IMG/VR virus record: IMGVR_UViG_3300028844_002921
DNA: 5,097 nt
From: a virus
Direction: 5' to 3' (one strand)
Within the stretch, counting starts at the first letter, position 1. Each line of letters begins with the position of its first letter. The notes beneath the pieces are model-generated. The model ran no database searches. It had not been told where the DNA came from and saw nothing but the letters and a program-made list of their open reading frames with translations. Positions 2,084 through 5,063 of the stretch are shown in pieces. Both the position numbers and the translations under genes were made by a program.

Positions 2084-2091
2084 TAATAACA

Positions 2092-2122
2092 GGGGCATGA
2101 TCACTAACGTGAATTTGCCCCT
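2092..2122 (+). repeat. Intergenic palindromic hairpin element, copy 1 of 2 (31 nt, identical to 3478-3508); function unknown (regulatory or ssDNA structural signal)
   Basis: Sequence ggggcatgatcactaacgtgaatttgcccct. Outer stem GGGGCA 2092-2097 pairs with TGCCCC 2116-2121. Inner stem TCAC 2101-2104 pairs with GTGA 2109-2112 around a TAAC loop. It starts 8 nt after the VP1 stop. The stem ends 15 nt before the ATG at 2137. No T-tract follows. Confidence 0.85.
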
Positions 2123-2136
2123 TAAAATAAAAAACA

Positions 2137-2484
2137 ATGAGCAAAATAAAAGCATATAGCAAAGCAAAAAAAGGAACAAGAAGCCAACTAACAAGAATTG
2201 AAACAGTGGAAGGAGAAAGAATAGAACAAAAAGTGGCGAGACTATTAGATAATAACGAACCGATAACAGACGGAGCAAGTGAAATATTTACGGAACGAAG
2301 AGACGGAGTAGTAGAAGCATATAACATACGAACAGACAGATTTGAAGTAGCATGTGATGCAATGGACACAGTAAGTAAAAGTAAGTTAGCAAAAAGAGAA
2401 GGTAAGGGAAAAGTCGTAAAACTAAAAGCAGACGAAAAAGAGGATAATATCGGAGATAAGTCAATACAAGGTAAAACAGAGTAA
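2137..2484 (+). CDS. Hypothetical highly charged 115-aa protein; possible internal scaffolding-type protein (function not established)
   Basis: It fills the gap between VP1 and VP2 in a very compact genome. It has the same strand, the same A-ending codon usage and the same A-rich Shine-Dalgarno-less leader as the identified genes, and a strong terminator follows it. The block EPITDGASEIFTERRDGVVEAYNIRTDRFEVACDAMD resembles, from memory only, a small conserved ORF of gut microviruses. Confidence 0.7.
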   Translation: MSKIKAYSKAKKGTRSQLTRIETVEGERIEQKVARLLDNNEPITDGASEIFTERRDGVVEAYNIRTDRFEVACDAMDTVSKSKLAKREGKGKVVKLKADEKEDNIGDKSIQGKTE

Positions 2485-2558: not shown

Positions 2559-3470
2559 ATGCCAAGCGGATATAGTACAACAGGAACACCAACAAACACA
2601 AATCAAATGGATTGGACACAAACAGCAATAGGATTAGGAACCGGACTCATAGGAATGATAGGACAAAACCGACGAGAAAGAAGAGCAATGGAAAACCAGG
2701 AAACACTAATGGGAATCCAAAGCAGAAACCAAATGAAACTTAACCAACATGGAGCAGACTTACAATACGACATGTGGAAAAAAACAAACTACCCAGCACA
2801 AGTAGAAATGTTAAAAGAAGCGGGATTAAATCCTGGTTTAATATACGGAAGCGCAGGAGCGGGAGGAACAACAGGAAGTCAAGGCGGAGGAAGTGCGCAA
2901 GGAGGAAATGCACCAAGCCCACAACCAATGGACATACAAAGCGCATTAAATGTAGCAATGAGCAAAGCACAAATAGAATTAGCGAAAAGCCAGGCAAACA
3001 AAAACGAAGCAGAAGCAGAAGCGATAGGAGGATATAAAGCAGAAGAAAGTGGAAGTAAGACTAAATTAAATAATCAACAAGCAAAAGCACTAGTACAACA
3101 AGTACAAGAAAGTATAAGCAAAGCAAAACTGAACACAGAACAAGGCTTAACAGAAGCAAGCAAAAGACAATTAATGAAGGTAACGGAAGGACTACAAGAT
3201 GCACAAACTGGACAAGCAATAGCGAATACAGAGATATCTGAAAAAGATTTACAATGGATGAAAGAGACAGGACTTAACAGAAACGACGGTATAATAGCAA
3301 AAACAATTCAATACCTATCAGAACAAACGGGAGTAGAACAAGGAACAATAATATGGACCTTAGGAGGACTAACAGCAGTAGAAAAAATAATAAAATTATT
3401 ACCACAAAAAGTCATGACAGACTTACTAAGTAAAGCACCAACAGTCATTAGAGGACTAGGGAAAAATTAA
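2559..3470 (+). CDS. VP2: DNA pilot / minor capsid protein (Microviridae VP2, phiX H-like), 303 aa
   Basis: An N-terminal hydrophobic Gly-rich helix WTQTAIGLGTGLIGMIGQ (about nt 2613-2666) is followed by the motif EMLKEAGLNPGLIYG, which is typical of gokusho/alpa-type VP2. Next come a Gly/Ser/Ala linker GSAGAGGTTGSQGGGSAQGG and a long Q/K/E/A-rich, coiled-coil-like C-terminal half. The gene lies between the capsid and Rep genes. Confidence 0.85.
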   Translation: MPSGYSTTGTPTNTNQMDWTQTAIGLGTGLIGMIGQNRRERRAMENQETLMGIQSRNQMKLNQHGADLQYDMWKKTNYPAQVEMLKEAGLNPGLIYGSAGAGGTTGSQGGGSAQGGNAPSPQPMDIQSALNVAMSKAQIELAKSQANKNEAEAEAIGGYKAEESGSKTKLNNQQAKALVQQVQESISKAKLNTEQGLTEASKRQLMKVTEGLQDAQTGQAIANTEISEKDLQWMKETGLNRNDGIIAKTIQYLSEQTGVEQGTIIWTLGGLTAVEKIIKLLPQKVMTDLLSKAPTVIRGLGKN

Positions 3471-3477
3471 GTTTAAC

Positions 3478-3508
3478 GGGGCATGATCACTAACGTGAAT
3501 TTGCCCCT
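3478..3508 (+). repeat. Intergenic palindromic hairpin element, copy 2 of 2 (identical to 2092-2122), immediately upstream of the Rep gene
   Basis: The 31-nt sequence is the same as copy 1. It starts 7 nt after the VP2 stop (3468-3470). Its stem ends at 3507, exactly 15 nt before the Rep ATG at 3523, followed by the A-rich spacer taaaacaaaaaaaaa. Confidence 0.85.
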
Positions 3509-3522
3509 AAAACAAAAAAAAA

Positions 3523-4590
3523 ATGTGCCTATATCCAACAATAATACTGAATAGAAAATACACCAAAACCAAAAAAAATAAAGGGAAAATACCACAAATA
3601 AAAGATGAAAGGACGAGATATGTGCCAGTGGGGTGTGGAAAATGCATGGAGTGTAAAAAACAGAAAAAAAGACAATGGCAAGTAAGACTACAAGAAGAAA
3701 TAAGGCACGATAAAAGAGGACAATTCGTAACATTAAGCTTTAATGATGAAGAATTAGCAAAACTAGAGACGGACTATGATGAACAGGAAATAATTACAGG
3801 AATAAGAAAAACAATAACACTAAGCAACGGAAAACAAAGAAACTACTATAATAAACAAAAAGTCAAAACGAAAAATAAACTACAAGGATATGAGTTAGAC
3901 AATGCAGTAGTAAAAAAAGCAGTAAGAAGATTCCTGGAAAGATGGAGAAAAGAAAATAAAAAGAGTGTTAAACATTGGTTAGTAACAGAATTAGGACAAA
4001 AGAAAACAGAAAGAATACACGTACACGGAATACTATTTACAGACAAAACAACAGAAGAAATAGAAAAAATATGGAAGTACGGTAAAGTATGGATTGGAGA
4101 GTACACAAACGAAAAAACAATAAATTACATAGTTAAATATGTAAGTAAGACAGACAAGCAACACCCTAACTATAATAGCATAACATTATGCAGTCCAGGA
4201 ATCGGAAGTAACTACATAAATAGAATGGATAGTAATAACAACAAATACAAAGGGGATAAAACAAACGAGACATATAAAACGAGACAAGGAATAAAATTGA
4301 ATCTACCAATATATTACAGAAATAAGATATACACAGAAGAAGAACGCGAAAAACTATGGATTCAAAAACTAGATAAAGGGGAAAGATGGGTAAATGGAAT
4401 AAAAATAGATATAAGCGAAAGTGAAGAAGTCTATTATAAAAGACTAAAAGAAGCACAAATAAAGAGCAGAATGCTAGGGTACCAGGACAATAAAAAAAAC
4501 TGGAATAAAATAAAATACGAGAACGAAAGAAGGAATTTAAAAAAAATGGAACGCTTCGCTAAGTTAAAAAACTGGGGCAAAAAAAGGTGA
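3523..4590 (+). CDS. VP4: Rolling-circle replication initiator protein (Microviridae VP4, phiX A-like HUH endonuclease), 355 aa
   Basis: RCR motif I is FVTLSF (aa 68-73, nt 3724-3741). The motif II HUH is HVHGILF (H166/H168, nt 4018-4026). Motif III is the two-tyrosine YIVKYVSK (Y202/Y206, nt 4126-4140), compare phiX A YVAKYVNK. The N-terminus MCLYP plus the Cys cluster GCGKCMECKKQKKRQW is typical of microvirus VP4. Confidence 0.95.
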   Translation: MCLYPTIILNRKYTKTKKNKGKIPQIKDERTRYVPVGCGKCMECKKQKKRQWQVRLQEEIRHDKRGQFVTLSFNDEELAKLETDYDEQEIITGIRKTITLSNGKQRNYYNKQKVKTKNKLQGYELDNAVVKKAVRRFLERWRKENKKSVKHWLVTELGQKKTERIHVHGILFTDKTTEEIEKIWKYGKVWIGEYTNEKTINYIVKYVSKTDKQHPNYNSITLCSPGIGSNYINRMDSNNNKYKGDKTNETYKTRQGIKLNLPIYYRNKIYTEEEREKLWIQKLDKGERWVNGIKIDISESEEVYYKRLKEAQIKSRMLGYQDNKKNWNKIKYENERRNLKKMERFAKLKNWGKKR

Positions 4591-4612
4591 AACAAACTGT
4601 TTACCAATTTTT
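4586..4612 (+). terminator. Candidate weak intrinsic terminator overlapping the Rep stop codon
   Basis: An 8-bp A/T-rich stem with one bulge pairs ggt(g)aaaca 4586-4594 with tgtttacc 4598-4605 around a 3-nt loop. After 2 nt comes ttttt at 4608-4612. The stem is weak, so this call is tentative. Confidence 0.35.
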
Positions 4613-4635
4613 ATGTATATTTAAAAAAAAAAATT

Positions 4636-4836
4636 ATGTTAAAACAATTCAAACAACTAATAAGAAAAACACATCAATGGGATAAAAACGGAACATGTAA
4701 ACACTGCGGAAACGTCAGAATAAAAGTAAGACGAGAAATCAACTCTCAATGGTATGAAACCCTATACGCAGACAAAGAAACAGGGGAAATAGTACAAAAA
4801 ATAAAATGTAAAACAAATCAATTAAAACTATTATGA
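4636..4836 (+). CDS. Hypothetical small basic protein, 66 aa (15 K/R vs 6 D/E; one CxxC); candidate J/VP8-like DNA-binding protein, unproven
   Basis: It is on the same strand and has the same A-rich Shine-Dalgarno-less leader (a run of 11 A at 4623-4633). Its stop overlaps the next ORF's start as ATGA at 4833-4836, and it fills otherwise empty space in a ~95% coding genome. I recognised no family motif. Confidence 0.55.
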   Translation: MLKQFKQLIRKTHQWDKNGTCKHCGNVRIKVRREINSQWYETLYADKETGEIVQKIKCKTNQLKLL

Positions 4837-5063
4837 GTACAGAAACTGAAGAACTAATAAAGCGAACAGAAGTAAAAGATACGCCTTTCGTAGTAATAAG
4901 CTTAAACGAAAAAGAACACTTTGCGACACTGGGCGAATATAGAATAACAGAAAAGTACGAAAGCCAGGAAGAAGCAGAAAAAGAGTGCAAGGCAATAACA
5001 TGGAATAGAATTATTCAAATAGTAATGATATTAAACGAAAAACTAAAAACAGATAACAAATGA
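4833..5063 (+). CDS. Hypothetical acidic protein, 76 aa
   Basis: ATGA overlaps couple it at both ends, to the upstream ORF at 4833-4836 and to the VP1 start at 5060-5063 (equivalent to 107-110). Codon usage matches the other genes. I recognised no family motif. Confidence 0.6.
   Translation: MSTETEELIKRTEVKDTPFVVISLNEKEHFATLGEYRITEKYESQEEAEKECKAITWNRIIQIVMILNEKLKTDNK

Follow-up and report, generated by a model that had tools for sequence, protein, structure and literature searches.

A duplicated plus-strand hairpin behind two structural genes of an uncultured microvirus, and its place among clade-wide gene-end hairpins

The DNA analysed here, IMG/VR virus record IMGVR_UViG_3300028844_002921, is a stretch of 5,097 nucleotides (nt), called the window below. 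Its two ends overlap by 144 nt, and the microvirus genome it represents is a circle of 4,953 nt. It carries a 31-nt hairpin in two exact copies, one directly behind the gene of the major capsid protein VP1 and one between the genes of the pilot protein VP2 and of Rep. The hairpin folds on the plus (mRNA-sense) strand, on which all genes of the window lie, is under purifying selection, is anchored to the upstream stop codon and belongs to a class of gene-end hairpins found throughout the clade. Our preferred explanation, to which we assign a rough probability of 45%, is that the module serves as a leaky terminator and/or as a stem-loop stabilising the 3' end of the upstream mRNA; that RNA rather than virion single-stranded DNA (ssDNA) is the acting molecule, and that termination or stabilisation is the effect, are inferences.

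Results

An exact duplication that provides the strongest folds of the genome

The 31-mer GGGGCATGATCACTAACGTGAATTTGCCCCT is present on the plus strand at 2092-2122 and 3478-3508 without a mismatch, and no third site in the window comes within three mismatches of it. None of 200 shuffles gave the outcome of two matches, and the similarity between the copies extends to 51 nt at 90%. The exact duplication, the hairpin fold and the distances to the neighbouring genes had been described in an earlier note on this DNA, and all of them were reproduced.

Each copy folds into an outer stem of 6-7 base pairs (bp), a 3x3 internal loop, an inner stem of 4 bp and a TAAC loop. In copy 1, which follows VP1, the outer stem pairs 2092-2097 with 2116-2121 and can be extended by an optional pair, A2091-T2122; the internal loop comprises 2098-2100 and 2113-2115, and the inner stem (2101-2104/2109-2112) closes the loop at 2105-2108. 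In copy 2, between VP2 and Rep, the corresponding positions are 3478-3483/3502-3507 for the outer stem, 3487-3490/3495-3498 for the inner stem and 3491-3494 for the loop. The folding energy of the 31-mer hairpin is -17.3 kcal/mol, with z = -5.3 at copy 1 and z = -4.9 at copy 2. When 45-nt folds were computed along the whole genome, the top three were the two copies and a hairpin between ORF2 and VP2 (2499-2534), with energies of -17.3, -16.5 and -14.2 kcal/mol compared to a genome mean of -2.9 (standard deviation 2.6), and DNA parameters returned the same ranking. The junctions after VP1, ORF2 and VP2 each hold one of these three folds, and the junction between Rep and the small open reading frame (ORF) behind it holds none.

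Both copies are tightly packed between their neighbours. The stem starts 7-8 nt past the TAA stop of VP1 or VP2 and ends at 2121 or 3507, with a 15-nt spacer to the next ATG both times (2137 and 3523). Stop and 5' spacer read TAA TAA TAA CA behind VP1 (2081-2091), providing three in-frame stops, and TAA GTT TAA C behind VP2 (3468-3477), providing a second in-frame stop. On the 3' side follow two A-rich leaders of 15 nt, that of ORF2 (TTAAAATAAAAAACA, 2122-2136), which is unstructured and has no Shine-Dalgarno (SD) sequence, and that of Rep (TAAAACAAAAAAAAA, 3508-3522); the tails of the two copies read TTAAAATA and TAAAACAA.

Both copies are conserved in independent assemblies and evolve in concert

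Two assemblies that are each 99.9% identical to the window (L111 from ENA and L112 from JGI) contain both copies, as do L002 (IMG/VR; genome 91.5% identical) and L109 (ENA; genome ~92.5% identical), and the short contigs L103 and L105 contain copy 1 and copy 2, respectively. Copy 1 is unaltered in L002, L103, L109, L111 and L112, and copy 2 in L002, L105, L109, L111 and L112. The objection that one copy might be an assembly artefact fails on the presence of both in five independent assemblies, the window included. Samples in which this virus occurs are JGI 3300038799, 3300038730, 3300038758 and 3300028829, ENA ERZ27295583 and ERZ28603689, and SRR18489175.

A comparison of the window with L002 shows no change at the 62 hairpin sites, against 24.3% divergence at 4-fold degenerate sites (P ~3e-8), which bears out the previous suggestion that the element is selected. 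Changes in the flanking spacers amount to 5 in 70 sites versus 0 in 124 for the hairpins (p = 0.006). The unpaired nucleotides of the hairpin are likewise invariant within lineages A-C (P ~1.5e-5, 40 neutral sites), and the 15-nt spacer to the ATG has been kept in lineages A-D, although it has undergone substitutions and contains A runs prone to indels.

Lineage D (VP1 78% identical in amino acids, 77-82% nucleotide identity to the window) consists of two Logan contigs from one run, L102 and L110. L102 terminates 27 nt into the post-VP1 hairpin, and L110, which carries ORF2 and VP2, begins inside the hairpin, continues with 15 nt and the ORF2 ATG, and terminates inside a hairpin located 7 nt past the VP2 stop. 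Both hairpins read GTGAAATTGC, with A instead of the window's T at position 23; they are read from contig ends, and it is from these ends that the duplication in lineage D is deduced. Because the copies are identical within a genome and different between lineages (T23 in A-C, A23 in D), their sequences indicate concerted evolution. The breaks in L102 and L110, 30 nt into the repeat, also illustrate that duplicated modules fragment k-mer assemblies of microviruses; an assembler with k = 31, which we take to be the value in use, is expected to break contigs 30 nt into a shared repeat.

Genomes whose own hairpins have sequence in common recur in the clade, and the window is not unique in this respect. 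In L050 (positions 299 and 4288), L068 (2365 and 3306) and L011-type genomes, the hairpin after ORF2 and a hairpin inside Rep have 13-15 nt in common, the shared string being (GT)CATCCCCCCTATT plus the tail GATAAGAG, and in L050 and L068 a 15-mer is common to the two hairpins of each genome.

A further observation concerns the DNA upstream of copy 2. Towards the 3' end of VP2 (window 3037-3465, ~430 nt), L109 and the corresponding end of contig L105 are too divergent for megablast. The flanks of this stretch are 92-97% identical to the window, and the alignment resumes at the VP2 stop (window position 3465), ~13 nt before copy 2. Judged by this pattern, the VP2 segment of L109 is a mosaic, and hairpin copy 2 may mark a recombination junction.

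The module is tied to the upstream stop codon

Pattern scans of IMG/VR with the exact 30-mer, the stems only or the inner 18-mer retrieved the sister strain L001 only, and pattern scans found no copies in unrelated viruses. The bacterial-genome pattern scan gave 11 matches, all unrelated perfect-palindrome hairpins of terminator-like appearance, mostly from high-GC genomes, and revealed neither a host family resembling repetitive extragenic palindromic (REP) elements nor a prophage copy. A stem-only pattern scan of metagenomes yielded nine matches, three of which were relevant: L082, L083 and L090 are related microvirus contigs whose proteins are ~55-64% identical to those of the window. Their module, GGGGCA(T/G)GATCACTAAAGTGAAATTGCCCC, is identical to that of the window at 27-28 of 30 positions, and a search with a covariance model derived from these modules added one variant, GGGGCTTGATCACTGAAGTGAAATAGCCCC, in L048.

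In all four contigs the module is found at a different junction, namely after ORF2, exactly 7 nt past the TAA and with 150 nt or more separating it from the next ATG. In L082, L083 and L048 it is followed by the T-rich CTTATTTAAT and then by a conserved ORF2-VP2 element described below. Identity of coding DNA between the four contigs and the window is 66-70% versus 90-93% for the module. Substitutions between lineages fall on the unpaired positions 7, 15, 17 and 23, save for one compensatory change from A-U to U-A at pair 6-25 in L048.

Taken over three junction types and five lineages, the spacer between stop and stem is 7 nt (8 at copy 1 of the window), and a prefix TAA-NNN-TAA-N(-GGGG), which supplies a second in-frame TAA, occurs in 6 of the 7 contexts of the module. 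Between stem and ATG, the distance can be as short as 15 nt or reach 150 nt and more. Since the former distance is constant and the latter variable, the module is tied to the upstream stop codon and not to the downstream start; the 7-nt stop distance is conserved among relatives, and the 15-nt ATG distance is specific to the window's own lineages. The earlier note had described the hairpins by their position 15 nt upstream of two start codons, a framing that holds within those lineages and not for L082, L083, L090 and L048. Its suggestion of a 5' mRNA element is weakened likewise: the 15-nt spacer preserved in lineages A-D, which agrees in length with the A-rich, SD-less initiation region known from Bacteroidetes, speaks for it, and the equivalents behind ORF2 and inside genes speak against it.

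Gene-end hairpins recur throughout the clade

We compared 80 relatives from IMG/VR (VP1 identity 54-98%), together with others obtained via protein look-ups, and scanned the plus strand of 83 relatives for uninterrupted stems with at least five G-C pairs; these relatives are phylogenetically non-independent. G/C hairpins follow VP1 in 22 of 80 loci and ORF2 in 47 of 72, and they occur within the first ~100 nt of Rep in 50 of the 51 loci that could be observed. Hairpins in the VP2-Rep spacer are rare (the window, L002, L005, L009 and L043). Most intergenic hairpins of the clade start 5-11 nt past the stop, their distance to the next ATG is variable, and their sequences and loops vary widely. 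Such elements are thus conserved in position, clustering behind VP1 and ORF2 as well as close to the start of Rep, and the duplicated module is not unique but belongs to a clade-wide set of gene-end hairpins.

The post-VP1 position is old, given that L079 (VP1 56% identical) shares the prefix TAAAAATAAC with L002, followed by a shorter GGGGG-loop-CCCCC hairpin. The remaining 58 of 80 relatives, among them the 68-70% relatives L003 and L104, have a tight junction without a post-VP1 hairpin. Over the first 5 nt of the tail, the T fraction is 0.69 in the post-ORF2 class, 0.33 in the post-VP1 class and 0.22 in the background, values that are partly confounded by T-rich tails often pairing with upstream A runs as extended stems.

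In relatives with a tight VP2-Rep junction, the hairpin is located inside Rep, at +52 to +58 or +83 to +101 from the ATG (for example L046 nt 1026-1060, L083 on the reverse complement 1613-1638, and L003 3702-3725; Rep codons ~18-34). At +52 to +58 it forms the codons N-G-G-x-I-P-P, and codon usage within the hairpin is strongly skewed: glycine is encoded by GGG in 42 of 45 cases versus 9% genome-wide, and proline by CCC or CCT in 48 of 50 cases versus 19% genome-wide. Variants such as GGCGGG/CCCGCC alter the amino acid and keep the pairing, and the covariation score of 0.141, compared with 0.103 in shuffled alignments, was reached by 3 of 500 shuffles. These data show that the intra-Rep hairpin is under selection at the nucleotide level.

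Among 56 distinct loci, only 4 have no hairpin of -9 kcal/mol or lower between the VP2 stop and position +140 of Rep (codon ~45); in the other 52 it is intragenic only (43), intergenic only (7) or present in both places (2) (p = 4e-5). In the window lineage the hairpin is intergenic only, the corresponding Rep sequence being NKGKIPQ, which forms no hairpin. By this distribution, copy 2 replaces the near-universal Rep-proximal hairpin. Whichever placement is used, the hairpin comes after VP2, but it precedes the Rep ATG only when intergenic; this speaks against a role in the Rep leader.

Strand asymmetry and identities that were disfavoured or rejected

At hairpin sites of the clade, isolated stem mismatches were G·T in 24 and A·C in 5 cases, versus 10 and 14 elsewhere in the same genomes (p = 0.0035, a value that is only indicative because the genomes sampled are related), and base composition would predict A·C to be the commoner of the two. 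This excess of G·T indicates that the hairpins are selected as single-stranded nucleic acid of coding sense, be it mRNA or plus-sense virion DNA, and not as a symmetric duplex. The asymmetry argues against symmetric duplex sites such as operators and recombinase (Xer) sites; for the latter, two direct copies would in addition resolve the genome into two circles, and the earlier note had rightly taken the two direct copies to make a recombinase site less likely.

The proposal of a shared operator or promoter for ORF2 and Rep was not sustained, the G·T bias being one reason and the sequence the other. The motif TAnnTTTG is absent from the plus strand of the whole window; TGAATTTG, the stretch that resembles it, has G at position 2 of the motif, and its TTTG is not conserved, ATTG taking its place in four other lineages: the stretch has changed to TGAAATTG (ATTG for TTTG) in L102/L110, L082 and L083 and to TGAAATAG in L048. 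A -33 TTTG 19-21 nt upstream was not found either, the only candidate being TTTA at an inconsistent spacing of 28 nt (copy 1) or 21 nt (copy 2). A Bacteroidetes-type promoter (-33 TTTG/-7 TAnnTTTG) is thus rejected on both motifs.

With regard to a canonical Rho-independent terminator, the stable GC-rich hairpin and its sense-strand location after a coding sequence (CDS) are present; the defining U-rich tract (7-9 nt) 3' of the stem is absent at both window copies, neither of which was flagged by a terminator scan. The earlier observation that no T-tract follows is correct; a terminator-type role, dismissed on that ground, nevertheless forms part of the best-supported reading, given the stop anchoring and the clade-wide pattern. 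A nick site or origin for an HUH-type Rep is disfavoured by loops that vary among relatives, by the two direct copies and by a better conserved candidate at 2490-2556. A stimulator of stop read-through or frameshifting was rejected because in-frame TAAs directly follow the stops (three after VP1, a second after VP2), and the helix of ~13 bp, internal loop included, is probably too short for an RNase III site. An Rfam covariance scan at E <= 10 returned nothing relevant for the module, and a sub-threshold CRISPR-DR match (E = 5.6) lies elsewhere in the window. DNA parameters likewise give a stable fold for the duplicated hairpin on either strand, and the packaged strand is assumed from the norm of the family.

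A distinct conserved element between ORF2 and VP2

The plus-strand gene-end element at 2490-2556, between ORF2 and VP2, consists of the hairpin at 2499-2534 (12 bp, the third most stable fold of the genome), a TTTTT run directly behind it, and a small palindrome, GCTTTTT/AAAAAGC. Its sequence, (G)GTACGCnTCTGTTCTTATATATCAAG / GGTACGCnTCTGTTCTTATATATCAAG...CGCTTTnAAAGCGCGAAA, is conserved in 60 of 72 relatives, and when its reverse complement is aligned to the core of the phiX174 origin (CTTGATAT-TAATAACA), 15 of 16 positions agree, a score equalled by 9 of 2000 shuffles. We consider this element the likely main cis element of the genome (origin and/or terminator), distinct from the duplicated module, and a candidate for the origin of Rep. 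The origin-like motif runs antisense to the genes, an orientation that calls into question which of the two strands is packaged.

Gene content and composition of the genome

The plus strand encodes VP1 (107-2083; Phage_F match, stop at 2081-2083), ORF2 (2137-2484), VP2 (2559-3470; stop at 3468-3470), Rep (3523-4590; PF23343 match) and two small ORFs (4636-4836 and 4833-5063), and the non-coding total of 224 nt given previously was reproduced. The 66-amino-acid ORF at 4636-4836 contains a CxxC motif and a distal Cys and gave no family match. A megablast search of INPHARED with the whole genome had no match, and a protein search retrieved only uncultured microviruses, with VP1 identities of at most 60%. 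A look-up of the Rep protein of the window yielded no entry.

The coding strand contains 46.5% A, 20.6% G, 17.8% T and 15.1% C, and such an A-rich, T-poor composition is unusual for the presumed packaged strand of a microvirus. All six start codons are preceded by A-rich leaders without an SD sequence, which points to a Bacteroidota-type host: Bacteroidetes mRNAs lack SD sequences and are enriched in A at -3, -6 and -11 to -15 (PMC7366714), and Bacteroides combines SD-less, A-rich leaders with canonical intrinsic terminators. The spacer at 4591-4635 (45 nt, CTGTTTACCAATTTTTATGTATATTTAAAAAAAAAAATT) is the sole T-rich non-coding stretch and contains no strong hairpin; it may be the main promoter region, TATATTTA matching TAnnTTTG at 7 of 8 positions.

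Discussion

A proposed stem-loop element at the 3' ends of the VP1 and VP2 messages

We propose that the duplicated hairpin is one portable stem-loop module that would fold on the plus strand right after the stops of VP1 and VP2 and act as a 3'-end element on a polycistronic mRNA. In the absence of a U-tract, it could work as a weak, leaky terminator and/or as a barrier to 3'->5' exonucleases, so that VP1 and VP2 messages would accumulate above those of ORF2 and Rep while read-through would still allow ORF2 and Rep to be expressed. The dense packing would be accommodated by a 7-nt post-stop spacer with a back-up TAA, followed by a 15-nt leader that may be the minimum unstructured, A-rich, SD-less leader for a Bacteroidota-type ribosome. 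A role at the mRNA 3' end is the best supported one because of the stop-codon anchoring and the clade-wide pattern; the terminator-like, T-rich tails of the post-ORF2 relatives also count in its favour, and the lack of a post-VP1 hairpin in 58 of 80 relatives is easier to reconcile with a tuning element than with a replication signal that the phage cannot do without. Further points on the same side are the strong fold at each of the three junctions behind VP1, ORF2 and VP2, the constant placement of Rep-proximal hairpins downstream of VP2, the selection for a single-stranded plus-strand structure, and the canonical intrinsic terminators and A-rich, SD-less leaders of Bacteroides.

Several points weigh against this interpretation. 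Neither window copy is followed by a U-tract, which bacterial RNA polymerases, where tested, need for intrinsic termination (PMC3993855). The invariance of the loop implies a sequence-specific partner, for which a generic stabiliser has no obvious need, and in most relatives the Rep-proximal hairpin is translated, so that ribosomes would melt an RNA hairpin at this site. Covariation within the module is weak: it concerns one pair, was equalled by 117 of 500 shuffles and is not significant. Finally, mRNA and packaged ssDNA of Microviridae normally have the same sense, and for this reason the strand evidence is unable to separate a role in RNA from a role in ssDNA.

Alternative explanations

The main alternative, which we deem possible but doubtful, places the function in the virion DNA. 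Here, the hairpins would be the only stable duplex features on a virion strand coated with single-stranded DNA-binding protein (SSB) and would offer host-driven complementary-strand synthesis a point of entry or priming, like the primosome assembly site of phiX174 or the G4 origin. The plus-strand G·T bias is compatible with such a role, DNA parameters, too, rank the hairpins as the strongest folds, and a genome with 46.5% A and 15% C has little other structure. As is generally known of phiX174 and G4, their sites are likewise just downstream of a capsid gene, and a DNA element inside the Rep CDS has a precedent in the phiX174 origin within gene A. Conserved loop nucleotides suggest a specific partner, and a priming role has been proposed for conserved intergenic hairpins of other microviruses (PMC9865509). 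A fixed 7-nt distance to the stop across three junction types is not predicted by this explanation, however, nor is the confinement of relocated Rep-proximal hairpins between the VP2 stop and early Rep. A common host factor should impose a motif, yet hairpins and loops differ widely among relatives, and the post-VP1 hairpin is absent from most of them. Moreover, the packaged strand is assumed, and the origin-like motif reads on the opposite strand.

A broader proposal, unlikely in our view when taken as a whole, is that the portable hairpin is recognised in a sequence-specific manner; a single phage or host factor reading the two copies would account for loops that do not vary and for copies that evolve in concert. 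This factor would prime virion ssDNA at two sites or co-regulate the scaffold-like ORF2 and Rep via their mRNA. The Rep-proximal hairpin would then be an essential cis element, residing either in Rep, where it would force GGG/CCC codons, or in a new spacer, and the direct copies would double as cassette boundaries for exchange of the ORF2-VP2 block.

A further alternative is a sequence-specific protein-binding hairpin that co-regulates the downstream genes ORF2 and Rep, either as a translational operator on the mRNA, for which the MS2 coat protein/replicase operator is the model, or as a boundary 15 nt before the start. We judge this improbable. In lineages A-D the distance to the ATG is exactly 15 nt at either copy, the unpaired nucleotides are under selection, the concerted T23 (A-C) or A23 (D) is what one factor reading both copies would be expected to produce, and the genome encodes small uncharacterised proteins. 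Set against this, no start codon comes closer than 150 nt to the module in L082, L083, L090 and L048, the Rep-proximal hairpin of most relatives is situated at +53 to +100 in Rep and thereby outside the initiation footprint, and no candidate binding protein was identified; a duplex version is contradicted by the G·T versus A·C asymmetry and the non-conserved TTTG.

Least probable among these explanations is a recombination or mobility module, that is, a portable cassette boundary spread by recombination within and between genomes, with direct copies that flank the block of ORF2, origin-like element and VP2 and promote modular exchange, any effect on expression being secondary or absent. The promoter-stem-loop cassettes of T4-type phages set a precedent, and the module does occur at different junctions with 90-93% identity versus 66-70% for coding DNA, its copies evolve in concert, the divergent VP2 3' segment of L109 ends at copy 2, and L050 and L068 each share a 15-mer between two hairpins; but purifying selection at every position across strains is unexpected for a passive junction, direct repeats risk the loss of 1,386 nt of essential genes, pattern scans found no copies in bacterial genomes or unrelated viruses, and two direct copies argue against a Rep nick or Xer/recombinase site, which would split the genome.

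Relation to known systems

To our knowledge, the cis-acting elements of uncultured Microviridae are almost unknown, and we are not aware of transcript ends or complementary-strand start sites established outside phiX174 and G4. The present data describe one clade that bears a regular set of plus-strand gene-end hairpins, with a nearly obligatory hairpin near the Rep start that can shift between coding and non-coding DNA, and a module that can spread from one junction to another, its copies in any one genome staying identical. Gene-end hairpins could thus be used as an annotation marker for such genomes. Should the module prove to be only a leaky terminator or stabiliser, it would be an ordinary feature, and still be informative on expression ratios in SD-less phages of the Bacteroidota type.

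The closest counterparts are the intercistronic terminators or mRNA-stabilising hairpins of phiX174, which are located after genes J, F, G and H. In both cases stem-loops follow directly after structural genes on the mRNA-sense strand, one per junction, and partial read-through, as proposed here, results in graded expression from polycistronic transcripts. The two sets differ in that there is no sequence similarity, that the window copies have no U-tract, that the host is E. coli for phiX174 and probably a member of the Bacteroidota here, and that two junctions of the present genome carry an identical sequence evolving in concert. Rho-independent terminators resemble the module in having a GC-rich stem-loop right after the stop, and the version in L082, L083 and L048 also has the T-rich tail; the window copies depart from them by the missing U-tract.

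REP-type stem-loops, such as that between malE and malF of E. coli, stabilise upstream mRNA, and they share with the module the intercistronic GC-rich hairpin without a U-tract, the membership in a repeated family and the proposed barrier to 3'->5' exonucleases that favours the upstream gene. In contrast, REP elements form chromosomal families of the host, with copy numbers in the hundreds and a transposase of their own, whereas the module occurs once or twice per phage genome. A stable plus-strand hairpin just downstream of a capsid gene in a compact genome is also found in the primosome assembly site (PAS; n'/PriA) of phiX174 and in the complementary-strand origin of G4 (F-G intergenic region). 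Those are single loci with defined host-factor recognition, while here two identical copies keep a fixed distance to the stop, the post-VP1 element is missing in most relatives, and neither Rfam nor sequence comparison provides a match.

Conserved hairpins in the Cap-Rep intergenic region have been predicted from metagenomic data for the uncultured roodoodoo- and reekeekeeviruses, where they show compensatory changes and nucleotide conservation above that of the flanking DNA, and the authors suggest initiation of the complementary strand while mentioning other possibilities (PMC9865509). These hairpins belong to another clade, have other sequences and have not been reported as identical duplicates or as interchangeable with a hairpin embedded in coding DNA. 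Gene-end hairpins as such are a known kind of element; what appears noteworthy in the present genome and its relatives is the identical duplication maintained in concert, the portability between junctions and the interchangeability with a coding-embedded hairpin.

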